This document shows, one piece after another, positions 50,007 through 64,000 of a stretch of DNA of 64,000 bases. The stretch is from an uncultured Gammaproteobacteria bacterium (GTDB lineage: Bacteria; Patescibacteriota; Patescibacteriia; UBA9934): NCBI GenBank assembly GCA_964344415.1, contig CAYFMS010000002.1, forward strand, positions 142 to 64,141, given 5' to 3'. Each line of letters starts with the position of its first letter. The stretch's first letter is position 1. A program made the position numbers and the translations under genes. The notes beneath the pieces are model-generated. The model was not told the DNA's origin and made no database searches. It worked only from the letters and a program-made list of their open reading frames with translations.

Positions 50007-50035
50007 TTGACATGCCGTTTTATGGTTGTTAAGTT
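50007..50035 (+). promoter_or_regulatory. sigma-70-like promoter (TTGACA-17-TAAGTT)
   Basis: Read directly; positions 50007-50012 and 50030-50035. Located after the DnaA-box-like repeat E. Confidence 0.35.
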
Positions 50036-50054
50036 CCGGTCTTCGGAAAAAAGT

Positions 50055-51107
50055 ATGAATATTTCACTAGTTTTAGCAACAAAATCAAAAAATCTAATTG
50101 AGCAAGCTCCCCTACTCTGTCAGGAATATATAAAAGACGAGTATGATGCATGTATTGTCGATATGTCATCTAAGCGAAGTCGGAAGGAGGATGGCATTAC
50201 AATATTTGGTGCATATGCCGGAATGCTTCATATTCTTTTACGCGCAAAAATTCAGATAGTGCATGTTTTAGGACAGCGGTCAGGTTTATTTGTAAAACTA
50301 TTGTCAGTACTTCGGCCCAATGTTCGCATTATTGCCACGATTGACTCGGTGCATGATTTTCGTGAAATGCGATCTGGCATAAGGCGTGCTTTCATGTCTC
50401 TGAGTGAAAAATGGACATTGCGTTGCGCGCATCGAATTATTGCGACAAATCCCCTATTGGAAACGATGTTGCACGGTAAACAAATAGATATTATTCCAAA
50501 TACCGTACTTCCAAAGCGTGCAGCTTGCGACCCAGTACTTTTGCAGTGTTATGGAATAAACAGCGCGCAGTATGTACTCGCATATCTGCATACTGACGAT
50601 AAAGAGCGATATGATCATTTAATGAAGGCGTGGAAGAATTTAGAAAATGATGCGAAAGGTGCATGCAAACTTGCCATTGTATTTATGGGGTCTGAAAAAC
50701 CTGTGATGCCTATTGTGAAGGATGAATCCATCCGATACTTCTCAAATATCAAGGGAGATGTTTTGGCATCAATGCAAATGGGTGCTCGATGTGTAATCAT
50801 TCTTGATGAGTCAAATGGAGCACTTCCCCTACTTGAACGGTCCTGGAGCTTTGGAAAGATGGTCATTGCGTCTGACTCGGTAACGGATAATGAATATGCA
50901 ATTCAGTACGCAAGTGGGTCGGTGGATCAATTAGCCGAATGTATGCGAGCAGTATTGTCAGGACAGAGTATTACAGACACTGCCGGACATCGCGCGAGAG
51001 TATTTGTAGAAACATATCAACATCCACATGTGATTGCTCATGCCTATACGGGCATGTATGAGCGGCTGCTCATCGATTTGCATGGAGATGTGGCAATGAG
51101 AATATAA
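50055..51107 (+). CDS. hypothetical protein, possibly a glycosyltransferase-like (GT1/GT4 fold) enzyme
   Basis: Start moved to the ATG at 50055 downstream of a TTGACA-17-TAAGTT promoter-like site; weak Rossmann-like similarity only. Confidence 0.35.
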   Translation: MNISLVLATKSKNLIEQAPLLCQEYIKDEYDACIVDMSSKRSRKEDGITIFGAYAGMLHILLRAKIQIVHVLGQRSGLFVKLLSVLRPNVRIIATIDSVHDFREMRSGIRRAFMSLSEKWTLRCAHRIIATNPLLETMLHGKQIDIIPNTVLPKRAACDPVLLQCYGINSAQYVLAYLHTDDKERYDHLMKAWKNLENDAKGACKLAIVFMGSEKPVMPIVKDESIRYFSNIKGDVLASMQMGARCVIILDESNGALPLLERSWSFGKMVIASDSVTDNEYAIQYASGSVDQLAECMRAVLSGQSITDTAGHRARVFVETYQHPHVIAHAYTGMYERLLIDLHGDVAMRI

Positions 51108-51115
51108 AAAGGCCC

Positions 51116-51403
51116 TCATGAGGGGTCTTTTTTTATACTGTCTGGATTTGGTGAAAAGGGCGTATTCTTGATTCTCCATTGCTCGACAAATTGGCCGATG
51201 CCCGACGTATCGCGTTTTTTGCGAACGGTCGTTGTTGATTGAGACCATTTTAATAATGATTCGAAATTAATTTTATATCGTCCATGAACGACGATATAGC
51301 TGATCTCTTTTTTTGCAATAGCGCGCCGTATTGTCCGTGAACTGATACCGAATAGCTTTGCGGCTTCTGATACGGATAGGCGGATAACATTATCAATACT
51401 CAT
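51116..51403 (-). CDS. excisionase-family helix-turn-helix DNA-binding protein
   Basis: LSVSEAAKLFGISSRTIRRAIAKKEISYIVVHGRYKI matches the excisionase/MerR-like HTH pattern. The ORF could start at 51424, inside the DnaA-box-like repeat. Confidence 0.55.
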   Translation of the reverse strand: MSIDNVIRLSVSEAAKLFGISSRTIRRAIAKKEISYIVVHGRYKINFESLLKWSQSTTTVRKKRDTSGIGQFVEQWRIKNTPFSPNPDSIKKDPS

Positions 51404-51416
51404 ACATTCATTTATT

Positions 51417-51470
51417 TTATCCACATTCTAAGTCGGACATTGAATGTGGATAAGTTATATATTTGTCCAC
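51417..51470. repeat. composite repeat C: TTATCCACA-N19-TGTGGATAA plus TTGTCCAC half-site and adjacent TTTGTCCAC-TCTAG-TGTAGACAAA palindrome
   Basis: 51417 ttatccacattctaagtcggacattgaatgtggataa 51453; overlaps the 5' end of the excisionase-family HTH gene. Confidence 0.8.
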
Positions 51471-51590
51471 TCTAGTGTAGACAAATGGAGAAGTTAAGTC
51501 AAAAATAATTGCAAAATATGGCTAGTGAGAGTAATTTTTTAGTCTATAGAACATTACTGTAATGTTTTCGTTCAAATAACGACATAGTAA

Positions 51591-52121
51591 ATGTCCATGC
51601 GACGACAAAAATTTCTTTTATTCCGTGTCTACAGATTTCGTGACGCAAAAGCATATGGAAAGCTCTATGATGCCTATGCGCCGAGAATTCGACGCTATGT
51701 AACATTTAAACTTCCAAGCCGTGATGACGTGGATGAGCTTACGGGTGAAGTGTTCTTGCGAGGCTGGGAATATGCAACATCGAGTCAGGTGGAGAATGCA
51801 AATGCCCTTTTCTACCGCATAGCGAGAAATCTGATTGCAGATTTCTATCGATCTCGACGCATTACTGAATCTCTTGATAATACTGATGAGATCGCGAGTC
51901 AGGCGAGAAAATTCACAGAAGAACTCGATTTAGAGGAAGAAAAGAAATTGATTCTCAAGTCGCTACAAAAATTGAAGGAGGAATATAAGGAGGTGCTGAT
52001 CATGAAATACCTCGATGAGATGTCTACGAAAGAGATAGCTCAAGCAATCGATAAAACGGTGAATAATGTGCGAGTCCTGCTCCATCGAGCAAAACGTGCC
52101 TTAAAGGAAATCCATGAATAA
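51591..52121 (+). CDS. RNA polymerase sigma factor, ECF subfamily
   Basis: 176 aa; sigma-70 region 2 (FLRGWEY) and region 4 HTH (LSTKEIAQAIDKTVNNVRVLLHRAKRAL). Confidence 0.85.
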   Translation: MSMRRQKFLLFRVYRFRDAKAYGKLYDAYAPRIRRYVTFKLPSRDDVDELTGEVFLRGWEYATSSQVENANALFYRIARNLIADFYRSRRITESLDNTDEIASQARKFTEELDLEEEKKLILKSLQKLKEEYKEVLIMKYLDEMSTKEIAQAIDKTVNNVRVLLHRAKRALKEIHE

Positions 52122-53217
52122 AGCCATTGAACAATTGAAGAGCATCAAAGATTGCAAGCAGGCAGGTTATGCCGATGCCAATGTTCATGCTTCTAGCCGA
52201 GAAAAGCTGATGCAGGCAATCGCGCATGGTCAGCGCGAGCATGTTCAGCATCACGCGGAAGTTCGTGGTGGACTTGCATATTTGCGATTTGCCTTTGCCG
52301 ACCTGATCTCTTCACCTGCAATAGGAATTGCATCGATGGCATTGTTATTATTTGGCGGCTTGACGACAGTGTCGGCTGCTTCTTCAAGTTTGCCAGGAGA
52401 TCCACTCTACGGATTAAAGCTCGCAACGGAGCGTGCACAGCTCCAATTAGTTTCTGCTGATAAACGCGCCGTGCTTCATACCGAGTTTGCGGAGCGGCGT
52501 CTTGAAGAATATTTGGCGCTTGATGATGCAAAGCGCGACACATTCGCGGGTCCAACACTTGATGCTTTCCGCAATCAAGTTGAGCAGGCGGCGGGAGAAA
52601 TAGAAAAGCTAAAGGATCAAAATAGTCGAGATGCCGTGGCAGCAGCAACTGAAATTGATCAAAAATTGCATACACTTGGAGCTTCCCTCGATGAAAGTCA
52701 GCCGATGCAGGAGATGGAAGATGTTCAACAAATTACAAAAGATGCATCCGAACAGGTCACAAATGTTGCTGTCGACATACATGAACAAGAGCCTGAAGAA
52801 ACGACGGAAGATTTACAGCAGCTATTCAAAGCTCAGCTTATTACCGTGACGGATAAACATACATTCAATATCGGTCGAATCAATGTCATTGAATCGATCG
52901 CGATTGAAAGAGATTTCCTCACACGGCAAGATATACGGTCATATACACAGCAATTGAATGAGTCGACGGATCGCATTGCAGAAGCAAGGCAATTGGCAGC
53001 TGCTGGAGGTTATAGAACGGCATTCGACATATTGCGAAGCGTGAATGAATCAATTACAGAAGTGGAACGCATACTGACGCATACGGAAACACGCATTATT
53101 TTCGAGGATGAGGCAGAGCTTCTTGATGAGGCGACTGTATCTGAAACTGATCTGGAAACAGATCCATCACCGTCCCCCGACGGAGATGAGGCGATAGAGC
53201 AAGAAGAGACAGAATAA
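52114..53217 (+). CDS. putative anti-sigma factor / DUF5667-like single-pass membrane protein
   Basis: Overlaps the sigma gene by 8 nt; single TM (IGIASMALLLFGGLTTV); LPGDPLYGLKLATE motif; acidic C-terminal tail. Confidence 0.4.
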   Translation: MNKAIEQLKSIKDCKQAGYADANVHASSREKLMQAIAHGQREHVQHHAEVRGGLAYLRFAFADLISSPAIGIASMALLLFGGLTTVSAASSSLPGDPLYGLKLATERAQLQLVSADKRAVLHTEFAERRLEEYLALDDAKRDTFAGPTLDAFRNQVEQAAGEIEKLKDQNSRDAVAAATEIDQKLHTLGASLDESQPMQEMEDVQQITKDASEQVTNVAVDIHEQEPEETTEDLQQLFKAQLITVTDKHTFNIGRINVIESIAIERDFLTRQDIRSYTQQLNESTDRIAEARQLAAAGGYRTAFDILRSVNESITEVERILTHTETRIIFEDEAELLDEATVSETDLETDPSPSPDGDEAIEQEETE

Positions 53218-53487
53218 TGCCTCTCCGTGTGCAGCGCCGCAGAGTGGGTCTGCGGCTTTGCCATGGAGATGTATCCAAGTTTACGCTTGGTTATCTCCGT
53301 CATTTTAAATCTCAGTGCGAACTTAAAGGTCGAGGCTTTTTCTTTAAAAGGGGCGTCTACCTAACGGCATTTTGCAGACCAAATGTATCTGGAAAAGTAC
53401 CATTAGGCAGACGCCCTACACGTTATGCGTGTGAAGAATAAGTCGTTTGCGCTTTTACTCTTAACTATAAGAAAGGATAAATCATTT
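53218..53487 (+). promoter_or_regulatory. long structured 5' leader of the giant surface-protein gene
   Basis: 270-nt ORF-free region with nested stems (ggagatgtatccaag...cttggttatctcc; 14-bp stem gggcgtctacctaa...ttaggcagacgccc). Confidence 0.5.
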
Positions 53488-56400
53488 ATGAATGATTCAA
53501 CTTTTGCAAAACGTGCCCTCTCTGTAGCTGTTGCTGCTGCAACCATTCTATGGGCTGTTGGAGCTGCAGCTTTCGCTGTGCCAACAACAGCAAGCGCAGC
53601 TGATGCTGGAGACGTCGTTCGAAGCACATCACTTTCAACAGTGTACTTCGTTGGTTACGACGGTGCGCGTTACGCATTCCCTAATGAAAAAACCTACGAC
53701 ACTTGGTTCGATGGTTTTGGAAGCGTAGAGACTATCTCTGACGCTGACGTTGCTGGCATGACACTTGCTGGAAACGTCGTATACCGTCCAGGTTCACGGT
53801 GGATTAAAATTACTTCTGCAGCAGAAACATATGCTGTTGGACGTGATGGAATGATCTACTGGATTGAAACTGAGGACGTTGCTACTGACCTCGCTGGAAG
53901 CGACTGGAACCAGAACATCGACGATGTTTCTGATTCACTATTCACCGACTACTCTGAAGGAGTTTCACTCTCATCTGCAACAGTATGGGATGGAGCACTT
54001 TACATGGATGGAAGCGATTACATGCTTTCATGGGACGGTGAAGCTCGAACAGTAACTGCCGCAGGTCGAAGTGCTAATGACCTTGAAGACGGATTCTTCC
54101 TTGACGGAGATTCAATCGACGCAAGCTCACTTTCTGCAGGATCAGACCTTGATGGTGCTGACTGTGATGTAAGCGATGCTTCGCAAACTGATTGTGTTGT
54201 TACCTCTGCTGGAGGTGATGTAACTGTTTCTACTTCTTCAAGTACTGCAGCTGGAGCTACTATTCCAGGTGGAGCTACTTCTGTTGAAGTATTCAGTTTC
54301 GACCTTACAGCTGCCGATGCCGCAAATGTTAATGGTGTAACCCTTGACTTTAACGGTATTGCTGCAGTATCTAATATTTCAAATGTATACCTTTATGAAG
54401 GTATGACTCGTTTGACAGAATCACGAAGCGTGAACAGTTCTACACGAGAAGTAACATTTGGAAGCCTTGACCTTGACATTGCTGCGGGAGCAACGCGAAC
54501 AATTACTGCTCGTGTTGAAATCGCAACTGCACAAACAGCTGGAGATGAATTCTACTTCTCTATCGATGGTGCAAATGCTGAGGCTGATGGAACTGTTTCA
54601 GGTTCTGCTACCGGTGAAACATTCACCATGGGTGCGCAGGATGTTGGAACGGTGACTGTTTCAAACAATGGAACGGTTACAAACCCATCTCTTGGTGAAG
54701 ATGATGCTAAGATTGCTCAATTCCAAGTAGCACCTTCTGGAGAAGATGTGGACCTTGAAGAATTGACACTTAAGATCGACAATGCAGCTGATCACTCTGA
54801 CTTCAAGCTATGGACTCTTTCTAATGAGCTCGTTGGAACTGGTGAATACATCGGTGACAAGCTTGTAAGTTTCGATGTTGATGGTGTTGACACTATCGAA
54901 GATGGTGACAATGACATCTTCAAGGTAACAGCTGACATTGGTGGAGAATCAGGTGATACAGTTGACCCATACCTTGATAATACGGTTGATGTGCTCGCTG
55001 TTGGTACTGACTATGGTTTCGGAAACGCAATCACAAATAGTTATGCATCTGCAAGTCAGTCAACGACCATTCAAGGTGGTAATGTAACATTTACCTTCTC
55101 AGGTCCAAGTGCAGGAGACATCTTGGTAGATAGCCAGGATCAGGTTCTTCTCGAATTCACATTGACATCTGCTGAAGATATCACTGTGAAGGATCTAGAC
55201 GTTATCGTGTACGCTGATGATGATGCGGACAATGACGCTACTGACGGAACAGATAGTAGTGACAGTGATAATGATGGTCTTATCAATACTGGTGATGAAG
55301 CAAACTTGAAGGATATCCGTATTATTAATGCTGATACTGGAAAGACACTTATGGGACCACTTGAGCTTGACTGTACAGCTGACAACACTGCTTGTTCTGC
55401 TACAGGATCAAGTACCCAGGGTGACGGTTCTCAGACCATTGACTTCACAGACGATTTCGGTGTTGATGCTGGCGAAGTTCTTCGATTGCAAGTTACAGGT
55501 GACATTGATGACACGGTAACAAGCGGTACAGAATTCGCGGCAACTATCGACATTTCAGGATTCGTTGCTGAAGATACAAATGGAGATAACCTAACACTTG
55601 CAACAGATGTTGTTCCTACAGGTGACATCATTGGTAATAACCAGGAAGCACTTTCTGCTTCATTGACACTTACTCTTGGATCTACTCCAGGTGATGTGAC
55701 AACAGTTCACGGAACAAGTGATGTTGTTGTAAACCGATTCAACCTGCAAGCAGGTGATGCTGGAACAATTGACGTCTCTCAAATCGTGGTATCTGTTTAC
55801 TCAGATGACACAGTAGCTTCTGGTGCATATACACTTGGTGACCATACAACGGCTCCAGATGTAAATGACTATGTATCTAGCTGTACTATCTACGATGTAG
55901 ATGACAACTTGCTTGACGGCCCAACATCTCCGGCTGCTAATGGTCAAACCATTACATTCGATGATGTTGACTGGACGATTGAAGCGAGTGAAAATGAAGA
56001 GATTGAAGTACGTTGTGACTTCCACAATCCTTCATCTACAACGGAATATTACTTCGCTTGGGACATTAACGATGCTTCTGAAGACATCGTTGCTCAGGAT
56101 GAAGAAGGTACAGACGTTGATCCGACGGCTGATGATCCAAACGGAGCAACCAACCCAACAAACATTGTGACGGTTGCGGCTTCTGGAAGCCTTGCTCTTA
56201 CACAAGACTCTAGTGCCCCTGCAGCTGACTTTGTTCTTACCGGAACAAATGACAATCACGTTTCAGCATTCCGATTGGATGCAACGAATGAGTCATTTGA
56301 AGTAACGCGATTCACGCTTACAGAGGAAGAAGCTGAAGACATGGGTCTTGGTACGGATGCAACGGATTATGTGAACAATATCTCTAGCATGACGATTGAA

Positions 56401-57630
56401 TACCCAATGGAAGATGGTTCTACGGGTACTGCGTCTGCATCAATAAGTACGAATGAAGCTATCTTCACAGGACTTGAGATGTATGTTGAAGAAGGTGAAG
56501 CTGCGGTAGTCGACGTATATGTTGATGTCCCAGCGACAGACCGAACTGGAAGTGGTTCTGCTACTTCTAATGAACGTATCTCTATTGGTTGGGATGCAGA
56601 TACCACAAACAATAATCACATTATTGCGAATGGTGTCGGATCAGGATTCCAGCTTACGGATACGGACAATGATGGTTCTGGTACTAACTTCTCAGACGTT
56701 GTAAGCGGAAATGCATTCGTTGTTCGAGAAACAGCACCTACAATCACATTGAATTCATCTTCTCCAAGTGGAACAGGATTTGTTCCTGGAGATCAGGAAG
56801 TTATCCGATTCAATGTTTCAGCAAGTTCAAATGAGAGCGTTGTATGGGAAGAAATGGTATTCGATGTCGCAGCAACAGATAACACGGGTACTCCAACTCA
56901 GTGGGATCATTGTGACGACGGAGATACAACGAATGGATTCATTGCTGAATCACAATTCGATCTCTACAACCTTTCAGATGCAGGTCTAACGACAGCTCTT
57001 GATACGGCAGACGGTGACTGGACTCTCTACTCAACAGAGGGTGGTACACTCGATATTTGTGACGAAACAGCTGACACCAATGCTGGTGAGGTTGTAACGC
57101 ATGCAAAGATCACATTGCCAACTGCTGAAACGGTTCCTGCTGGAGAGACATACATCTACTCTCTGTACTATGACTCTCAGTACGCTTCTGCGGCGAATGA
57201 TGATTCTGTACAATTCGGAATTGCATCAGATCCAATCGTTGCAGTAACATCGGCTGAAGCTATGACAGACGTTGATGAAGGTGGAGGTGTAACAGCTACT
57301 GATACTAACTTCACATTGACATCTGGAACAGGAATTTCTCGTGGAGACATTCTCTGTCTGGACGATGAAGATGTAGCTGGTTGTGACACTGCGGACGAGC
57401 TCGCTCTCGTTACCTACATCACTGGTGCAGAGGTATATCTTGTTCGAGGTTACCTCGGAACAACCCCTGCAGCTCTTGTTGATGCAGATGACGTAGACAT
57501 GGTTCCTGCATCATTCGTATGGCGTGACGACGGTTCTACAACCGCGCTTACGACAACCTCTATGGATGAGTACTGGGGATCTTACCTCGTTGATAGTCTT
57601 CCTATTGACGGTGGTGCGATGGGATTCTAA
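53488..57630 (+). CDS. giant secreted acidic surface protein (S-layer/adhesin-like; Thr/Asp/Gly-rich, Ig-like repeats probable)
   Basis: Start at ATG 53488 (MNDSTFAKRALSVAVAAATILWAVGAAAFA signal peptide) within the 1401-aa ORF; low-complexity acidic composition; 270-nt structured leader; terminator 57694-57720. Confidence 0.7.
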   Translation: MNDSTFAKRALSVAVAAATILWAVGAAAFAVPTTASAADAGDVVRSTSLSTVYFVGYDGARYAFPNEKTYDTWFDGFGSVETISDADVAGMTLAGNVVYRPGSRWIKITSAAETYAVGRDGMIYWIETEDVATDLAGSDWNQNIDDVSDSLFTDYSEGVSLSSATVWDGALYMDGSDYMLSWDGEARTVTAAGRSANDLEDGFFLDGDSIDASSLSAGSDLDGADCDVSDASQTDCVVTSAGGDVTVSTSSSTAAGATIPGGATSVEVFSFDLTAADAANVNGVTLDFNGIAAVSNISNVYLYEGMTRLTESRSVNSSTREVTFGSLDLDIAAGATRTITARVEIATAQTAGDEFYFSIDGANAEADGTVSGSATGETFTMGAQDVGTVTVSNNGTVTNPSLGEDDAKIAQFQVAPSGEDVDLEELTLKIDNAADHSDFKLWTLSNELVGTGEYIGDKLVSFDVDGVDTIEDGDNDIFKVTADIGGESGDTVDPYLDNTVDVLAVGTDYGFGNAITNSYASASQSTTIQGGNVTFTFSGPSAGDILVDSQDQVLLEFTLTSAEDITVKDLDVIVYADDDADNDATDGTDSSDSDNDGLINTGDEANLKDIRIINADTGKTLMGPLELDCTADNTACSATGSSTQGDGSQTIDFTDDFGVDAGEVLRLQVTGDIDDTVTSGTEFAATIDISGFVAEDTNGDNLTLATDVVPTGDIIGNNQEALSASLTLTLGSTPGDVTTVHGTSDVVVNRFNLQAGDAGTIDVSQIVVSVYSDDTVASGAYTLGDHTTAPDVNDYVSSCTIYDVDDNLLDGPTSPAANGQTITFDDVDWTIEASENEEIEVRCDFHNPSSTTEYYFAWDINDASEDIVAQDEEGTDVDPTADDPNGATNPTNIVTVAASGSLALTQDSSAPAADFVLTGTNDNHVSAFRLDATNESFEVTRFTLTEEEAEDMGLGTDATDYVNNISSMTIEYPMEDGSTGTASASISTNEAIFTGLEMYVEEGEAAVVDVYVDVPATDRTGSGSATSNERISIGWDADTTNNNHIIANGVGSGFQLTDTDNDGSGTNFSDVVSGNAFVVRETAPTITLNSSSPSGTGFVPGDQEVIRFNVSASSNESVVWEEMVFDVAATDNTGTPTQWDHCDDGDTTNGFIAESQFDLYNLSDAGLTTALDTADGDWTLYSTEGGTLDICDETADTNAGEVVTHAKITLPTAETVPAGETYIYSLYYDSQYASAANDDSVQFGIASDPIVAVTSAEAMTDVDEGGGVTATDTNFTLTSGTGISRGDILCLDDEDVAGCDTADELALVTYITGAEVYLVRGYLGTTPAALVDADDVDMVPASFVWRDDGSTTALTTTSMDEYWGSYLVDSLPIDGGAMGF

Positions 57631-57693
57631 TCACACACATTATCGTGTAGTGATCAGATCCACCTCGTGGACTTATCTGCCATACGGCAAAAC

Positions 57694-57720
57694 AAAAAAC
57701 CGCCTTCGGGCGGTTTTTTG
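57694..57720 (+). terminator. rho-independent terminator after the giant surface-protein gene
   Basis: aaccgccttcgggcggtt hairpin followed by ttttt. Confidence 0.75.
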
Positions 57721-57760
57721 GTGCTTTACTTTTCTCCCTAAATGGGTAAACTATGCGAAT

Positions 57761-58477
57761 ATGGAATTATTGAAAAAATATCGGGTAATTGTAATTATCG
57801 TAGCTATTCTTGCGCTTGCTCTGGTGGCGATTATCGCTGGTCAAAACGGGAGTGATGATGCATACAGTGGATTGGTCACGCAGAAGAATGTTCAAATAAC
57901 TGATGGTGAGCGTGAAATGCTTCGGCAACGAATTCTTGTGTCGCAGCAAACATTAGAACAGCAGCAGCGTTCGGATGAAGATGTTGATTTAGATTTAATA
58001 TCTGACATTGCATATGACTCGATGCTCATTGGTGATTTGGTTACAGCTCGAGAATATTATGAAATGTATTTGGATCTTCATAATATTAATCCAGCTATTT
58101 GGCAGAACTATGCAGGCGTACTGCGGGACATGGAAGACTGGCAGGCAAGTGAAGATGCATATAGGCAATTGTCGGTTGTTAGTCTATCTGAATCGACGGT
58201 TATTTCTTTGGTAAAAGCAATTGACCGCAATAATCCAGACGGTAGTAGAGATGAAGAAATTCTAAATCTCCTTCTCACCTCGCTCGAAACGAGTGTGGGG
58301 CGGACGCCGGCGCTTTTGACGCATATTGCGCGTTGGTATGAAGATCACGGTGAATGTCAGAAAGCTATTGATCATTTCGAAGTTGTCGAAGATATGCTAG
58401 ATGAGCTTGGTGAGGATACGAGCGGCGTCATTGCTGACATCGAGCATGTGGAATCAACATGCGTCCCGACTGAATAA
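57761..58477 (+). CDS. membrane-anchored hypothetical protein (helical repeat, TPR-like)
   Basis: ATG at 57761 after the terminator; N-terminal TM (VIVIIVAILALALVAIIA); helical, acidic C-terminus. Confidence 0.45.
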   Translation: MELLKKYRVIVIIVAILALALVAIIAGQNGSDDAYSGLVTQKNVQITDGEREMLRQRILVSQQTLEQQQRSDEDVDLDLISDIAYDSMLIGDLVTAREYYEMYLDLHNINPAIWQNYAGVLRDMEDWQASEDAYRQLSVVSLSESTVISLVKAIDRNNPDGSRDEEILNLLLTSLETSVGRTPALLTHIARWYEDHGECQKAIDHFEVVEDMLDELGEDTSGVIADIEHVESTCVPTE

Positions 58478-58494
58478 CATGATAAAATAGGCCT

Positions 58495-60030
58495 ATGAAG
58501 AAATTTTTAGCGCCTATTTTTATTTTTGCGATTGCTTTTCCGGCTTCGGTTTTGGCGATCACGCCGAATGATCCACTCATCGATGAGCAATGGTATCTCG
58601 ATAAAATTGCGGCAAAAGATGCATGGGATCAGCAGCAGGGTAGCGATGATATTGTTGTTGCGATACTCGATAGCGGTGTTGATTATGTTCACGATGATCT
58701 TCTCGATAATATTTGGGTAAATCGTGGAGAAATCGATGGAAATGAAATTGATGATGATGGAAATGGGTATATTGATGATGTCTATGGGTATGACTTTGTT
58801 TGGGATGAACCAAGCCCTTTTCCGGTCATTGGCGGCGAGTCAATTCCAATTGCGGTTTCGCATGGGACGGTCATTGCAGGCATTATTGGCGCGGTTGGCG
58901 ACAATGCGGAAGGTATTACGGGCATTAACTGGGATGTATCGCTCATGCCTCTTCGAATTTTGAATGAAACGGGATCAGGCACGCCAAATGATATGATCGA
59001 TGCTGTGCATTATGCGGTCGATAATGGAGCGGATGTCATCAATATGAGCTTCGCTGGTTATTTTACGAGTGATGCGCTTGAAGAGGCGGTAACATATGCG
59101 TATGAACAGGGGGTGGTCATTGTTGCGGCGGCTGGAAATGATGATGTAAGTTTGAATCAAAGACCGATTTACCCAATCTGCTATTCAGGCGAGGAGGATT
59201 GGGTTTTGGGTGTTTCTGCTTCCGATGATACGGACGCGAAGGCTGATTTTTCAAATTTTGGATCTGATTGCGTCGATATCTCTGCACCGGGAACAGATGT
59301 CTTTTCTGTGAATTATTATGACCCGCCAAATGGATATGACGATGAATATATTGGAGGATGGGATGGGACATCACTTGCGGCTCCTATGGTTTCTGGGGCG
59401 GCTGCATTACTGCTTTCCGCTTATCCAAGTATGACACCGACTGATGTTATGACGGTACTCAAGCTTTCTGTCGATCCGCTCATTGGCGAGCGCCGCGTTC
59501 ATATGGGCGCTGGGCGGCTAAATATAGACTCGGCTCTTGAACTTGCTGAGGATATGGGATTTTCAACGGTATATGACCCACTGTCGGATATGCGCTTTAT
59601 TCGTACGGAAGATTCCTCGAGCGTGTATATATTGCCGGGTGATGGTACGAGAAGGGTCGTGATAGATACGCAAACATTCTTCACGCATAGGGATGATTTT
59701 AACGCGGTTGAGATTATTGATTCGGCAGAACTCTCTGATTATAAATTGTCTGGAATTCTATTGCCGAAGCCAGAATCGGCACTGATAAAAATCCCAAGCG
59801 ACCCTACGGTGTATTGGCTTGAAGAAAATCCAAGAGATGTGTTTTCACCAATTCTCAGACCGATTCCATCCGAAGACTACGCCACGGAGCAAATTGGGAA
59901 TGACTGGGCGGATTATGTCATCGACATTAATCAGATTCACTTTTCAAAATTCACATCGGGTCTTCCTGTTGATTTGGAAGAAGAATTGGATGCCTCGAAT
60001 TTAATTCAAAGAGAAATACTGAATAGATAA
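58495..60030 (+). CDS. subtilisin-like serine peptidase (S8) with C-terminal domain shared with the giant surface protein
   Basis: Catalytic triad motifs ILDSGVD (Asp), HGTVIAG (His), GTSLAAPMVSGAAALL (Ser); signal peptide; about 130-aa C-terminal extension. Confidence 0.88.
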   Translation: MKKFLAPIFIFAIAFPASVLAITPNDPLIDEQWYLDKIAAKDAWDQQQGSDDIVVAILDSGVDYVHDDLLDNIWVNRGEIDGNEIDDDGNGYIDDVYGYDFVWDEPSPFPVIGGESIPIAVSHGTVIAGIIGAVGDNAEGITGINWDVSLMPLRILNETGSGTPNDMIDAVHYAVDNGADVINMSFAGYFTSDALEEAVTYAYEQGVVIVAAAGNDDVSLNQRPIYPICYSGEEDWVLGVSASDDTDAKADFSNFGSDCVDISAPGTDVFSVNYYDPPNGYDDEYIGGWDGTSLAAPMVSGAAALLLSAYPSMTPTDVMTVLKLSVDPLIGERRVHMGAGRLNIDSALELAEDMGFSTVYDPLSDMRFIRTEDSSSVYILPGDGTRRVVIDTQTFFTHRDDFNAVEIIDSAELSDYKLSGILLPKPESALIKIPSDPTVYWLEENPRDVFSPILRPIPSEDYATEQIGNDWADYVIDINQIHFSKFTSGLPVDLEEELDASNLIQREILNR

Positions 60031-60046
60031 TTGCTTAATATATTTT

Positions 60047-61048
60047 ATGTCAAAAAAGATAGCATTAGTTACCGGAGGGGCTGGATTCATTGGATCATTT
60101 TTATGCGAGGCGCTTCTTCGAGATGGGATGCGCGTCATAGCGATAGATAATTTCTCGACGGGGCATGTTCGCAATATTGAACCTTATTTAAGCAATCCTG
60201 ATTTTCAATTTCTGCGTTTAGATATTAATAAGCCATTCGATATCACGGAGTTTGCTGAGCTTGAGGGATTTCAGGTTGAGCATATTGGTATCGCTGAGAT
60301 TTACCATTTGGCATCGCCGACATCGATTCGGAATTTCAAAGAGCATTGCGTGCAGACTCTATTGACGAATTCTGTGGGGACGCATCATATTTTGGAACTT
60401 GCCAGCCAATTCAAATCATCGGTTTTGCTTGGATCTTCTGGTGTTGTTTATGGAGGTGTGCAAGACGGGAAGGGGGTATTTTCTGAGGGAGATATTGGTT
60501 TGCTGGATCACCTCACTCCTCGTGCTTGTTATGATGAAAGTAAGAAATTTGCAGAGACGATGCTTGATACATATGCACGTAACCGTGATCTTGATGTAAA
60601 AATTGCTCGTATTTTCAGATCTTTCGGTCCTCGCATGCCTATTTTTGACGGTCATCAAATAGCAGATTATGTTATGGCTGCACTCGATAATCAGGAAGTG
60701 ATTGTGCATGGAAGAGAGAATGAGGAAACATCGCTGCTTTATGTTTCTGATATTGCTGATGCTCTCATTCGATTAATGCGGGCAAAGAAAGGGATTGGAC
60801 CGGTGAATATCGGAAGCGATCAATCGATAACGTTGAAGGCGGTTGCGGAATTGGTGATTCAAATGACCGAATCTCAGTCAACAATTAAGATGGAGGGTCC
60901 AATCGATGGAGCAATGGAAACAGGATTGCCCGACATCACAAAAGCTAAAGAAGAATTGGGCTGGCTGCCACTGACAAGTATTGAGGATGGACTGCAAAAG
61001 ACTATTGACTATGTTCGAGCAAATAAGATTCTTTTGAACTCGGATTAA
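60047..61048 (+). CDS. NAD-dependent epimerase/dehydratase (UDP-glucuronate decarboxylase-like)
   Basis: GGAGFIGS Rossmann motif; YDESKKFAETM (YxxxK catalytic) and IARIFRSFGPRM resemble the UXS family. Confidence 0.85.
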   Translation: MSKKIALVTGGAGFIGSFLCEALLRDGMRVIAIDNFSTGHVRNIEPYLSNPDFQFLRLDINKPFDITEFAELEGFQVEHIGIAEIYHLASPTSIRNFKEHCVQTLLTNSVGTHHILELASQFKSSVLLGSSGVVYGGVQDGKGVFSEGDIGLLDHLTPRACYDESKKFAETMLDTYARNRDLDVKIARIFRSFGPRMPIFDGHQIADYVMAALDNQEVIVHGRENEETSLLYVSDIADALIRLMRAKKGIGPVNIGSDQSITLKAVAELVIQMTESQSTIKMEGPIDGAMETGLPDITKAKEELGWLPLTSIEDGLQKTIDYVRANKILLNSD

Positions 61049-61095
61049 CCCCCATCTCTTGACGAAATTCCTGCATTTCAGCACACTGCACATGT

Positions 61096-61776
61096 ATGAA
61101 AGTTGCTGTTGTCATGCCGGCATATAATGAATCATCTCGAATCGCTCATGCGATTGAAGACGCATCCATTTTTAGTGATGCTGTTATTGTGATTGATGAT
61201 GCATCAGTAGATAGGACATCTGAAAATGCAAAAAAAGCGGGCGCCATTGTACTCCGCCATGCAATCAATCGAGGCCAAGGCGCAGCGATTCAAACGGGTA
61301 CGCAATATGCACTCGATGTTATCGGCGCAGATATTATTGTGCATTTTGATGCAGATGGTCAGATGACCGGTGAAGAAATCCCTCATTTGATCGAACCAAT
61401 CAAGAATCAAGAAACGGAAATTGTGCTCGGATCACGTTTTCTTGGAAGAGATGCAAAGAATATGCCATTCACTCGCTGGCTCACTCTGAAAGCATCGCTA
61501 TTATTCACTTGGCTTGTTTCAGGATTGCCGGTGAGTGATGTGCATTGCGGATTCAGGGCTCTTTCAGCGGATGCAGCTCGGAAGGCAACGCTCACCATTG
61601 ACCGTATGGCACATGCATCACAGGTGTATGACCTCATCAAGATAAATAAGATTCACTTCAAAGAAGTGCCGGTGACAATTAAGTATAGTAAGGAAACTCT
61701 GAGAAAGGGTATGTCATTCAAGGGCGGCTTTACCGTACTCAAGGATTTCTTCAAGCATAAGTTTTTCGGAATGTAA
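61096..61776 (+). CDS. glycosyltransferase family 2 (polyprenyl-phosphate sugar transferase-like)
   Basis: VVMPAYNESSRI, DDASVD (DxD) motifs; 226 aa. Confidence 0.85.
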   Translation: MKVAVVMPAYNESSRIAHAIEDASIFSDAVIVIDDASVDRTSENAKKAGAIVLRHAINRGQGAAIQTGTQYALDVIGADIIVHFDADGQMTGEEIPHLIEPIKNQETEIVLGSRFLGRDAKNMPFTRWLTLKASLLFTWLVSGLPVSDVHCGFRALSADAARKATLTIDRMAHASQVYDLIKINKIHFKEVPVTIKYSKETLRKGMSFKGGFTVLKDFFKHKFFGM

Positions 61777-61777
61777 T

Positions 61778-62107
61778 ATGATTTTCAAAATTTTTCTCAT
61801 TATTTTTGCGATTATCGCTTTGTGGAGGACATTCAGACAGTATCAGAAAGACCATGTGAGCCTGCATTGGTTTTGGGTTTGGCTTCTATTGTGGTCGGGC
61901 GTGGTAGTGGTTGCGATATCTCCACAGACGACGGATATTGTGGCGAACTTTGTCGGTGTGGAGCGGGGTGCGGATCTGCTCGTATATCTCGCCGTGATTG
62001 TATTAATTTTCGGTTTTGCGCGTATTCTGGTTCGGCAAGAAAAGCATCGGCAAGAATTAACGAAGCTGGTTCGAGAAATGTCAATTAAGCATGCAGAAAA
62101 AGAATAA
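61778..62107 (+). CDS. small membrane protein (DUF2304-like, GT2-associated)
   Basis: 109 aa; three TM segments; immediately follows the GT2 gene and overlaps the next GT gene. Confidence 0.5.
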   Translation: MIFKIFLIIFAIIALWRTFRQYQKDHVSLHWFWVWLLLWSGVVVVAISPQTTDIVANFVGVERGADLLVYLAVIVLIFGFARILVRQEKHRQELTKLVREMSIKHAEKE

Positions 62108-63170
62108 GCCAAAAATTGGAATTGTTTATGTCCCCTTCACATACATTGATTATGTGAAGGATATTTTTGATTCTTGGCAAATGCAGGACTATCCCGCTGA
62201 CCGAATCTCAATATATATTGTGCCGAATGGGGCGCCGGATACCGTTGAAGTCTTAAACAGGGAATTGCAGAATCGGCCTGATATGTCGAGTGTTCATATT
62301 ATTGACGATGGGGTGAATCATGGTTTTGCAGGGGGGCATAATATTGGCATGAAAGCGGCTCTTGAAGACGGATGCGATTATATATTCCTCAATAATGGTG
62401 ACTTGAAATTGGGCGAGGGGACGCTAACTTCTTTGGTTGAACGCTTGGAATCGGATCGAGGTATTGGATCTATTCAGCCATTGATTCGCTATTGGAAAAA
62501 TGCAGATTTAATAAATACATCCGGTGGTGTAGCGCATATTTTTGGTTATGCATATGGTCGAGATAATCTGCGAAGTATAAATGATGCAGGGGATTTTGAT
62601 GCTGGCATTGCCTATGCATCTGGCGCAGCTGTTATGTATCGATCTGAAGTACTGATAGAGGTTGGATTGCTCGAGGAGGGCTTTTTCATGTATCACGAGG
62701 ATTTTGAAATGGGGCTGCGACTTCTGATCTCGGGATATAAAAATAGGCTTGATGCCAACGTGTCTGCATTTCATGATTATGAATTCAAAAGGAATCCAGG
62801 AAAGTTTGGTTGGATGGAATTATATAGATGGATGATTGTATTGGGATATTTTCGAATCGGTACGCTTGCATTGCTATTGCCGGTAATGCTACTTCATGAA
62901 ATATCAACTTGGCTTTTTGCACTGAAAGGTGGTTGGTTCAGGGCGAAGCTCTGGCAGTATATGCAATTGCTACATCCAAGAACATATGCGCTTCTTTTTA
63001 AGATTCGTGCGCGAACCAAATCATTGCGTAAAATATCGGATCGCGAACTTCTTCGTTACTTTACGGGGAATATTGAAGCGCAAGAACAGTCGAGCTGGAT
63101 CGTTGAACGCATTGGAAATCCTGTCATTTCGACATATCTTCGGTGCATAAAGGTGATTATTTTTTGGTAA
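62091..63170 (+). CDS. glycosyltransferase family 2-like
   Basis: 359 aa; N-terminal GT-A-like region (IYIVPNGAPD, DDG); C-terminal membrane-associated segment. Confidence 0.65.
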   Translation: MQKKNKPKIGIVYVPFTYIDYVKDIFDSWQMQDYPADRISIYIVPNGAPDTVEVLNRELQNRPDMSSVHIIDDGVNHGFAGGHNIGMKAALEDGCDYIFLNNGDLKLGEGTLTSLVERLESDRGIGSIQPLIRYWKNADLINTSGGVAHIFGYAYGRDNLRSINDAGDFDAGIAYASGAAVMYRSEVLIEVGLLEEGFFMYHEDFEMGLRLLISGYKNRLDANVSAFHDYEFKRNPGKFGWMELYRWMIVLGYFRIGTLALLLPVMLLHEISTWLFALKGGWFRAKLWQYMQLLHPRTYALLFKIRARTKSLRKISDRELLRYFTGNIEAQEQSSWIVERIGNPVISTYLRCIKVIIFW

Positions 63171-63172
63171 AT

Positions 63173-64000
63173 ATGAGAATTGCTCAAATAACGCCAGTAT
63201 ATCCTCCGTATCGCGGGGGTATGGGAAATGTTGCATACGATTATGTAGAGGCATTGAAACAAGAGGGGCATGAAGTTCAAGTCTTTGCTCCTTCTACCAT
63301 TAAGCCTGTTTTTTCATGGGGAAATGCAGCCTTCATTCCTCAGTTGATGTGGCGTCTGCGAGGATTCGATGTCATACATTTACATTATCCATTTTATGGA
63401 TCTGCTATAGCAACATGCATTGCTGCATTTTTCACAAAAACTCCGATTGTGATGACATATCACATGAAAACAGTTGCGTCTGGATGGCTTGGACTCATTT
63501 TCAAACTTTATCGTTTTTTTGTAGAGCCTTTTCTTCTGGCATCAATGAATCAAATTTTGATTAGTTCTGTCGATTATGCGAATAGCATAGGTATAGCGGG
63601 CGAGAAGGTGATAGATTTTCCATTTCTTATCGATACAGAAAAGTATGCTCCTGGCGAATCAGATATTCGTCAGACATTAAATATATCTTCAGATGAAAAA
63701 GTTATTCTTTTTGTTGGTGGCATGGATGATGCACATTATTTTAAGGGAATTGATGTTCTCATGCACGCATTTGCAAAGGCAAAGAATGGGCACCTCATTT
63801 TAGTGGGTGATGGGAATTTACGTTCAGGATATGAACGCCTCGCAAATGATCTGGAGATAGAAAATAGGGTACATTTTGCTGGAAATGTTGATTCTCTGAT
63901 TGATTTTTACCGCGCGGCAGATTTGCATGTGCTTCCATCGGTGAATCAGGCGGAGGCATTTGGATTGGTGACGCTTGAGGCAGCATCCTCAGGGCTTCCA
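63173..64000 (+). CDS. glycosyltransferase family 4 (GT-B), 3' truncated by window end
   Basis: MRIAQITPVYPPYRGGMGNVAYD N-terminus and EAFGLVTLEAASSGLP near the window end; no stop codon within the window. Confidence 0.7.
   Translation, partial: MRIAQITPVYPPYRGGMGNVAYDYVEALKQEGHEVQVFAPSTIKPVFSWGNAAFIPQLMWRLRGFDVIHLHYPFYGSAIATCIAAFFTKTPIVMTYHMKTVASGWLGLIFKLYRFFVEPFLLASMNQILISSVDYANSIGIAGEKVIDFPFLIDTEKYAPGESDIRQTLNISSDEKVILFVGGMDDAHYFKGIDVLMHAFAKAKNGHLILVGDGNLRSGYERLANDLEIENRVHFAGNVDSLIDFYRAADLHVLPSVNQAEAFGLVTLEAASSGLP

Follow-up and report, generated by a model that had tools for sequence, protein, structure and literature searches.

The 64-kb stretch of DNA considered here, which we call the window (contig CAYFMS010000002.1, positions 142 to 64,141), carries from position 51116 to its end a series of genes that surround the gene of a giant, acidic, secreted protein. 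On balance, we favour the view that these genes form a conserved cell-envelope locus of Uhrbacteria, centred on this 140-kDa protein as a wall-anchored protein of the surface-layer (S-layer) type. A first-pass annotation of the window had listed here an extracytoplasmic function (ECF) sigma factor with a putative anti-sigma factor, a structured leader, the giant protein, a subtilase sharing a domain with it and a set of glycosylation genes. Using the list of open reading frames (ORFs) together with Pfam and NCBIfam profile scans to draw the gene map, we found all of these genes and elements where they had been placed, or a few bases off (Table 1).

A scan of one genome per species returned 129 stretches encoding relatives, of which 80 loci were kept and annotated with the window proteins (loci are cited below by number, as L001). 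The gene order HTH_17 (minus strand), sigma factor, DUF5667 protein, giant protein, tetratricopeptide repeat (TPR) protein, S8 subtilase, short-chain dehydrogenase/reductase (SDR), family 2 glycosyltransferase (GT2), DUF2304 protein (and second GT2) is present in essentially every locus that is long enough and is common to about 75 species representatives of Uhrbacteria, the HTH_17 gene being placed alike in almost all related loci. Three distant homologues of the giant protein, recognisable in the body of the protein at E = 1e-60 to 1e-14, are followed by unrelated genes; their loci keep the sigma factor gene, the DUF5667 gene and an intergenic region of 390-504 nucleotides (nt) directly upstream of the giant gene, and the unit of sigma factor, DUF5667 protein, leader and giant protein is therefore the conserved core. 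Five loci (L050, L055, L059, L071 and L085) have a second, shorter giant paralogue a few kb downstream.

Table 1. Genes and other features of the locus, in coordinates of the window (aa, amino acids; HTH, helix-turn-helix; TM, transmembrane; GT4, family 4 glycosyltransferase; MFE, minimum free energy; HMM, hidden Markov model)
Feature	Position	Strand	Basis or remark
HTH_17 (excisionase/MerR-like) regulator	51116..51424	-	Pfam HTH_17, E = 2.3e-10
Palindrome TTTGTCCACTCTAGTGTAGACAAA, candidate operator	51462..51485		between the divergent HTH_17 and sigma factor genes
ECF-type promoter-like motif TGTAAT-N16-CGAC	51558..51583	+	ends 7 nt before the sigma factor ATG
ECF (group 4) sigma-70 factor	51591..52121	+	Pfam Sigma70_r2 and r4_2; TIGR02937
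DUF5667 single-pass membrane protein	52114..53217	+	Pfam DUF5667, E = 2.3e-14
Structured intergenic region (leader)	53218..53487	+	270 nt; folding z-score
RNA motif, expanded variant	53314..53453	+	MFE fold and invariant bulge sequence
Shine-Dalgarno-like GAAAGGAT	53471..53478	+	9 nt before ATG 53488
Giant acidic secreted protein, candidate S-layer-type	53488..57630 incl. stop	+	1380 aa
Predicted Sec signal peptide, aa 1-37, ...TTASA/ADAGD	53488..53598	+	hydrophobic segment; pattern conserved in orthologues
N-terminal module copy on the giant protein, putative cell-wall-binding anchor	53605..53982	+	aa 40-165; two ~60-aa subrepeats
Membrane-anchored TPR protein	57761..58477	+	weak TPR Pfam matches; N-terminal TM helix; conserved position
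Secreted S8 subtilase	58495..60030	+	Pfam Peptidase_S8
C-terminal module copy on the S8 protease	59590..59979	+	residues 366-495; BLASTP, HMM scan
NAD-dependent nucleotide-sugar epimerase/dehydratase, extended SDR	60047..61048	+	Pfam GDP_Man_Dehyd, Epimerase
GT2 polyprenyl-phosphate sugar synthase, PpgS/AglJ-like	61096..61776	+	Pfam Glycos_transf_2; NCBIfam
DUF2304 small membrane protein, three TM helices	61778..62107	+	Pfam DUF2304, E = 4.5e-25
Second GT2 glycosyltransferase	62091..63170	+	Pfam Glycos_transf_2
GT4 glycosyltransferase, truncated by window end at 64000	63143..64000	+	Glyco_transf_4, Glycos_transf_1 on full gene (L001 19719-20798)

The giant protein, the subtilase and their common module

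The giant protein had been described as an acidic, Thr/Asp/Gly-rich secreted protein of 1381 aa, and this description stands apart from the length, which is one residue shorter. Its composition is dominated by D (12.6%), T (12.0%), A (10.8%), G (9.3%) and S (9.2%), K is scarce (0.9%), and its isoelectric point (pI) is 4.05. The sole hydrophobic segment is N-terminal (aa 9-33, ending ASA/AD, the slash marking the cleavage site that we read from the sequence), so that a signal-peptide-like N-terminus, the lack of any further hydrophobic segment and ten Cys in five close pairs all point to secretion. Self-BLAST gave no internal sequence repeats. Public gene calls put the start at ATG 53425 (1401 aa), within the structured leader; because of the N-termini of the orthologues and the GAAAGGAT site, we place it at ATG 53488 as the first-pass annotation had done, and most related leaders have AAAGGA ahead of the start codon.

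An identical protein is on record in a 768-kb metagenomic contig (ENA ERZ930061), and full-length relatives of 1330-1490 aa numbered more than 311 in a word-indexed search; all are 'hypothetical', and the named ones all belong to the Patescibacteria group or to Candidatus Uhrbacteria. Almost none of these full-length relatives has a Pfam match, and the protein of the window has none in Pfam or NCBIfam. From 79 orthologues, AlphaFold (AF2) gives a monomer model of aa 181-1380 that has a predicted local distance difference test (pLDDT) score of 87.7 and is entirely beta, a chain of about ten sandwich domains. The N-terminal module described below is the most conserved part of the protein, with 64-69% pairwise identity vs 38-63% (mostly 40-55%) in the body. 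The extreme C-terminus (aa 1362-1380, 57571-57627) is also strongly conserved, with the pattern ...WGSYLVDxLPxxGGxLxF and a near-invariant final Phe; we know of no sorting signal of this pattern in a monoderm.

The subtilase identity of the protein encoded downstream is secure, as it matches PF00082 with 162.9 bits (cut-off 21.8) and has the triad D59/H123/S293 in canonical motifs. The homology that had been proposed between the N-terminal region of the giant protein and the C-terminal extension of this subtilase goes far beyond chance, since BLASTP aligns aa 44-161 of the former with aa 368-491 of the latter at 30% identity over 124 columns (E = 2e-15). This common module of ~125 aa consists of a ~60-aa unit duplicated in tandem (half-against-half profile-profile comparison: 82% probability, E = 1e-5, 57 columns), with the consensus LIKg.s.s.VYYv..dGKRyvFPNe.tY.SWY followed by LvKI.tDPKVYAV..gG.LRWv.sE..A..LYG..W. 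A six-frame HMM scan gave no third copy in the window. In L023 there are two S8 paralogues, both with the module.

Using a profile made from the two window copies and one orthologue, we then searched 1.84 billion cluster representatives and found the module in at least 4,546 protein clusters at E <= 1e-3, 3,583 at E <= 1e-10 and 792 at E <= 1e-30; a word-indexed search with the module alone had returned three fragments only, and it was the exhaustive profile search that found the rest. The carriers are almost always secreted proteins of Patescibacteria with the module at one end: among the retrieved proteins it stands N-terminally just after the signal peptide in 248, C-terminally in 20 and internally in 3, and nine proteins have two copies. 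Its fusion partners include Ig-like and other domains (fn3, Big_5, CARDB, purple-acid-phosphatase N domains, cupredoxins, DUF3048, PG_binding_1) as well as catalytic ones (GH44, C25 and trypsin proteases, polysaccharide deacetylase), and there are many stand-alone proteins made of a signal peptide and the module, of about 180 aa in total. This distribution, at either end of thousands of secreted proteins with unrelated partners, gives good support to the earlier suggestion of a shared targeting or anchoring module.

The module appears to be uncatalogued. Pfam scans with both copies and the consensus, up to E = 10, gave noise only; no Pfam model covers the module in any of 74 module-bearing proteins; and it has no match to the SLH, CWB2, PG_binding_1 or LysM profiles, nor in the copies of NCBIfam and PHROGs that we searched. 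A sequence profile search of the PDB returned only spurious antibody matches, and tblastn of the consensus against GenBank phages gave no match. A scan with a six-sequence alignment found module proteins on two viral contigs of IMG/VR. In one viral contig (L084, 2357-3813), a lysozyme-like SLT_3 gene overlaps the start of the following gene for a secreted module protein, a pair reminiscent of two-component lysins such as PlyCA/PlyCB.

A model of the module from 120 sequences (pLDDT 92, predicted template modelling score 0.83) consists of two beta-beta-beta-alpha-beta-alpha-beta units. Its structural matches are EccB1 of the mycobacterial type VII system (score 6.1), a C-terminal domain of S. 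mutans (3l9a; 4.4), the wall-binding domain of the LysIME-EF1 endolysin (4.3 and 4.1), PlyCB (3.9) and the wall-binding domain of Lys170 (3.3). The ten best Foldseek matches are all EccB chains, but weak (E = 0.06-1), so that the predicted fold most resembles, weakly, the EccB repeats and the wall-binding domains of phage lysins. These two likenesses are connected, as the ~50-aa repeat of EccB1 has been found to resemble PlyCB, the subunit by which a streptococcal phage lysin binds the wall, and peptidoglycan binding by EccB1 has been put forward as a suggestion only (PMC4769845).

Such likenesses also allow a different view, in which the module is no wall binder but an oligomerisation or docking unit, like the rings of PlyCB, an accessory docking domain or even part of a type-VII-like apparatus. 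Its best structural match is a core component of type VII secretion, PlyCB acts as an octameric ring (PMC4769845), and the best NCBIfam match of the protease is the type-VII-associated mycosin (TIGR03921, E = 1.5e-52). The mycosin score, 178.9 bits, is however below the equivalog cut-off of 278.75, no other type VII genes (EccC, EccD, WXG100) are visible at the locus or at related loci, and such varied and unrelated fusion partners are more easily explained by a generic address tag than by a specific complex; we regard a docking unit as quite improbable. That the protease and the module each have a type VII component as their best match, mycosin and EccB respectively, may be a coincidence or a distant evolutionary link. 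We consider a cell-wall-binding address tag the most likely role of the module, because of its terminal position, its promiscuous partners, the stand-alone forms and the consistent but weak likeness of the predicted fold.

The sigma factor unit and the leader RNA

The ECF sigma factor announced by the first-pass annotation is confirmed by matches to both Sigma70_r2 (aa 25-90) and r4_2 (aa 120-171) and by a TIGR02937 score of 86.3 bits (cut-off 42.9); with regions 2 and 4 present, region 3 absent and 176 aa in length, within the usual range of about 170-200 aa, it belongs to ECF (group 4) factors. The DUF5667 gene overlaps the end of the sigma factor gene by 8 nt and directly follows it in every sigma-bearing related locus examined. 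Its product has a single TM helix (aa 60-83), the DUF5667 domain at aa 92-185 and an acidic ectodomain (pI 4.3). Of the anti-sigma factor proposed earlier, the adjacent downstream single-pass membrane protein is thus present and a recognisable anti-sigma domain is not: Pfam and NCBIfam give no such domain (for example of the zf-HC2/RskA type), and the 59 cytoplasmic aa match no family. From its gene context, we regard the DUF5667 protein as a putative anti-sigma or sensor partner.

Upstream of the sigma factor gene, the pattern TGTAA[TC]-N16/17-CG[AT]C occurs in 44 of 67 related upstream regions, ending exactly 7 nt from the start codon in 34 of them, and two of the three distant loci have it as well. 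Fifty of its 74 plus-strand matches in 1.4 Mb of locus sequence fall at the sigma factor gene; by our estimate, about 16 matches would be expected by chance in this amount of sequence. The distance of 7 nt implies a leaderless or nearly leaderless mRNA, and the sigma factor gene is apparently transcribed in this way from its own TGTAAT-N16-CGAC promoter. The possibility that the same promoter type also serves the giant gene was ruled out, as none of 73 giant-gene leaders has the motif. The palindrome between the divergent HTH_17 and sigma factor genes has perfect arms (TTTGTCCAC-N6-GTAGACAAA), and the pattern TGTCTAC-N6-GTAGACA is visible in most of the 67 upstream regions; it is plausible that this is the operator of the HTH protein.

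The 270-nt region between the DUF5667 gene and the giant gene folds at -101.6 kcal/mol vs -69.5 +/- 5.0 for its dinucleotide shuffles (z = -6.4; none of 200 as stable), and the leaders of orthologous giant genes in 73 species, 145-270 nt long, have a median z of -4.2. The earlier description of a structured leader therefore holds for the fold and its conservation, and does not extend to a conserved promoter of its own, which was not found. The nearly invariant sequence AAAGGTCGA, present in 71 of 73 leaders, was used as the alignment anchor and led to a conserved RNA motif, made of a helix (P1), a bulge with the invariant sequence AAAGGUCGA and a hairpin (P2). P1 has about 10 bp and its sequence is wholly different between species; the 5' bulge is 11 nt long (YNAAAGGUCGA); and P2 is stacked directly on P1 and is typically GGCC-N4-GGCC or GACC-N4-GGUC. 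In some lineages a separate upstream hairpin replaces P1, and the invariant 9-mer then becomes a linker between two helices.

When the leaders were aligned with MAFFT, RNAalifold recovered P2 only, missing P1 because P1 shifts register. This was overcome with a covariance model of the compact form, R1, seeded with 20 same-register sequences. In 62 leaders R1 finds the compact motif, one per locus and where it should lie, and elsewhere in 1.47 Mb, on both strands, it gives two weak matches only. In the R1 alignment 94.7% of the cells are paired, vs 34-44% in controls with the partners shifted by 1-3 columns; compensatory changes occur at all 14 pairs, and the covariation score is 0.67 vs about 0.1 in the controls. 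The alignment was fitted to the model, which favours pairing, but fitting cannot explain the 4-6 pair types seen per P1 position. This helix-bulge-hairpin leader RNA is a new motif with strong covariation, tied to one gene family, and variants of it are also present in the three distant loci. No Rfam family matches at gathering score anywhere in the window, and at E <= 1 the window leader and two compact orthologous leaders gave chance-level matches only. In the window, the MFE fold pairs 53314-53322 with 53445-53453 as P1, the 11-nt bulge UUAAAGGUCGA lies at 53323-53333, and P2 is expanded into a branched hairpin of ~110 nt (53334-53444), as it is in L073 and L078.

A stable structure between two coding regions might be no regulatory RNA at all but simply the terminator of the sigma factor operon followed by the promoter of the giant gene; operons often end in stable hairpins, and a long hairpin opens the region (53218-53273). 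The hairpins are however not followed by a U-tract, the plus strand of the leader gave no scored site resembling a terminator or a promoter, P1 changes its sequence completely and yet stays paired around an invariant 9-nt single-stranded bulge, and a generic terminator does not explain why the helix-bulge pattern is kept in the distant leaders of 390-504 nt. We thus hold this explanation to be highly improbable. We also considered P1 as marking the primary 5' end, with a sigma-70 -10 box at a fixed distance upstream of it, and rejected this for want of a positional signal (at most 0.4 bit per position). In a subclade (for example in L046, L021, L069 and L031), two further hairpins are conserved about 20-60 nt upstream of the RNA motif, TTCCTTCA...GAAGGGA and then GGGAU.GCG...CGC.AUCCC.

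Our preferred reading is that the motif may act as a processing or 5'-stabilising element, or as an element that binds a protein or the ribosome. Processing-dependent differential stability is known for cggR-gapA of B. subtilis, and the STAB-SD element for cryIIIA. The mRNAs of slp (slpA) genes are stabilised by a stem-loop in the 5' untranslated region (PMC10221546). As in these systems, a long structured region stands before a presumably abundant structural gene with a regulator gene upstream in the same orientation, and the bulge has AAAGG in common with the Shine-Dalgarno sequence of the giant gene; unlike them, the motif of the locus combines a specific, invariant bulge of 9 nt with covarying helices, and no sequence relation links it to them.

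The sugar genes

The set of sugar genes described earlier is as announced, with an SDR epimerase/dehydratase, two GT2 enzymes, a DUF2304 protein and, from 63143, a GT4 enzyme. The first GT2 is a clear member of its family (PF00535, 76 bits vs a cut-off of 23.3). Its best NCBIfam match is PpgS (NF058614, E = 1.7e-46, 158.5 bits, below the equivalog cut-off of 370), followed by AglJ (E = 1.7e-22), and it is also PpgS-like in its length and in its DUF2304 neighbour. The DUF2304 gene always adjoins the GT2 gene in related loci, and its product is probably the partner of this enzyme. The NCBIfam matches of the SDR protein are all below equivalog cut-offs, and the second GT2 has weak NCBIfam similarity to rhamnosyl- and galactofuranosyl-transferases. 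About 1.5 kb past the window end (L001 22034-24031, minus strand) lies the gene of a 665-aa protein with about 14 TM helices and a soluble C-terminal domain, which has no Pfam match and of which a relative has a 696-aa version beside glycosyltransferases; it is a candidate GT-C-type transferase for a lipid-linked sugar. Upstream of the HTH_17 gene, an ORF at 50007-51107 has only faint GT4-family matches and is found a few kb upstream of the HTH_17 gene in many related loci; given these matches and this recurrent position, a neighbourhood of glyco-genes may flank the core on both sides.

PpgS is a polyprenyl-phospho-GalNAc synthase whose product sugar decorates a cell-wall polymer; this polymer is arabinogalactan in mycobacteria and corynebacteria, where PpgS is joined in the task by the small membrane protein Rv3632, the epimerase Rv3634c and the GT-C enzyme Rv3779, and C. 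glutamicum has an extra GT2 in this system (PMC9671496). The locus is similar in having an adjacent epimerase, a PpgS-like GT2, a small membrane partner and an extra GT2, with a many-helix protein nearby, and it differs in that its GT2 scores below the PpgS equivalog cut-off. We take Rv3632 to be a DUF2304 member, and to our knowledge bacteria of the candidate phyla radiation (CPR), unlike mycobacteria, have no arabinogalactan. The PpgS-like set and the 14-helix protein nearby suggest that a lipid-linked sugar is transferred outside the cytoplasm. The earlier proposal of protein glycosylation thus keeps its genes, but they are nearer to the PpgS/Rv3632/epimerase wall-polymer pathway and may build a wall ligand rather than glycosylate a protein. 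The acceptor may be a wall polymer, possibly the ligand of the module, or the Thr/Ser-rich giant protein.

The S-layer reading and its rivals

In the reading that we favour, the module would tether the giant protein to the wall of the cell that makes it, by non-covalent binding to peptidoglycan or to a wall glycopolymer, and the beta-sandwich body would form the outermost protein coat, a layer of the S-layer type. The module would be a general address tag on many secreted enzymes of Patescibacteria, including the neighbouring S8 protease, which it would place beside its likely substrate, the giant protein. The sugar genes would make a polyprenyl-phosphate-linked sugar for use outside the membrane, either on the wall polymer recognised by the module or on the Thr/Ser-rich giant protein, and the leader RNA would uncouple a high output of the structural gene from a low output of the regulators. 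The S-layer label is a good inference for the giant protein, which has the status of a candidate; of the very high expression that marks S-layer proteins, the structured leader would be a circumstantial sign.

Several observations weigh against this reading. Foldseek comparison of the modelled giant body with the PDB returns only generic tandem Ig-like arrays at TM-scores of 0.1-0.18 (alpha-2-macroglobulin, hydin, integrin legs, PrgB, a large adhesion protein repeat), the 50 best matches include no solved S-layer protein, and neither Pfam, NCBIfam nor these 50 matches connect the protein by sequence or structure to a characterised S-layer family. The full-length identity of 43-57% between the giant protein and its relatives is high for S-layer proteins, a class that tends to change rapidly in sequence. 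Both module copies of the window are acidic (pI 4.05 and 4.4), whereas many domains that bind anionic polymers are not. Among 49 complete syntenic S8 orthologues only 19 carry the module, so that co-anchoring is not essential; three of four scanned orthologues of ~700 aa carry FG-GAP repeats instead. No promoter was found for the giant gene by scanning the leader, by a motif search in the 73 leaders or by checking upstream of the RNA motif, and the gene may therefore be co-transcribed, the leader being an intercistronic region within a transcript of sigma factor, DUF5667 protein and giant protein. As for the RNA motif, the compact R1 model does not score the copy in the window, probably because P2 is expanded there, and finds no second copy in the window; we assign this copy to the motif from its predicted MFE fold together with the invariant bulge sequence.

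The same Foldseek matches include adhesin-type Ig arrays (PrgB, the large adhesion protein repeat), and the giant protein could instead be an adhesin of an episymbiotic CPR cell, with the module binding the wall or surface glycans of a host. CPR bacteria often live as epibionts, the phage lysin domains that the module resembles serve to recognise foreign walls, some loci have paralogous giant copies, and highly expressed peptidoglycan-binding and Ig-like proteins of Paceibacteria have been read as host-attachment factors by Kuroda et al. (PMC10936435). By contrast, there is one conserved, non-repetitive orthologue of constant length per locus in about 75 species, where host-range adhesins are usually more variable; the module is also carried by exoenzymes of a housekeeping type and by small stand-alone proteins; and an N-terminal site adjoining the signal peptide agrees well with attachment to the wall of the producer itself. 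An adhesin thus seems unlikely to us, and we keep to a wall-anchored protein of the S-layer type.

The closest known system is the S-layer cassette of Clostridioides difficile, in which SlpA and the protease Cwp84 both have the CWB2 anchor that binds the polymer PSII (PMC4973711). Both systems have a surface protein and a nearby secreted protease with a common non-covalent anchor that is used by many other proteins, and linked genes for the synthesis of a wall glycopolymer, a role that is suggested here by the genes. They differ in that the module, made of two ~60-aa units vs three CWB2 repeats, has no sequence relation to CWB2, and in that the protease is an S8 serine protease and not a cysteine protease, with the module on 19 of 49 orthologues only. 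SLH domains bind pyruvylated secondary cell-wall polymers and are found on S-layer proteins and exoenzymes of Bacillus and Paenibacillus; there too, a terminal module is common to an S-layer protein and diverse exoenzymes and the anchor end is the most conserved, but the module of the locus has no match to SLH (PF00395) and no pyruvyl-transferase (CsaB) gene was seen at the locus.

Within Patescibacteria, S-layer proteins of 643-1274 aa have been predicted for several lineages, with no entry for Uhrbacteria among them (SymProFold preprint, 10.1101/2024.05.28.596244). In cultured Paceibacteria, large proteins with Ig-like and wall-binding domains are among the most highly expressed secreted proteins (PMC10936435), and some of the S-layer candidates of the preprint are the same proteins. 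The giant protein is similar to these candidates in being large, secreted and made of multiple Ig-like domains, with a terminal wall-binding domain (putative here) and no functional annotation. It is unlike them in its anchor, since theirs are peptidoglycan-binding domains of InterPro and not the module, a distinction drawn from their descriptions only.

A more far-reaching interpretation, which we offer tentatively, is that the module is a Patescibacteria-wide counterpart of SLH and CWB2 and that the leaderless sigma factor, the DUF5667 protein as a sensor, the AAAGGUCGA-bulge RNA and the giant protein form a feedback circuit for envelope supply, the RNA being a new class of cis-regulator; the RNA motif would then sense a protein, the ribosome or a ligand.

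Beyond the first-pass annotation, the locus has brought to light the scale and uncatalogued status of the module, the deeply conserved unit of sigma factor, DUF5667 protein, leader and giant protein, and a new covarying RNA motif. A large part of bacterial diversity falls within Patescibacteria, and next to nothing is known of how they build their envelope or attach proteins to their surface. The locus gives a testable S-layer protein candidate for Uhrbacteria, together with a compact regulatory unit whose ECF-type promoter implies a leaderless sigma factor mRNA. The module, present on thousands of secreted proteins, is a candidate for a family entry and for binding and structural studies; if it is a wall anchor, it would provide a sequence handle on the whole surface proteome of these bacteria and a bait for isolating their wall polymers.

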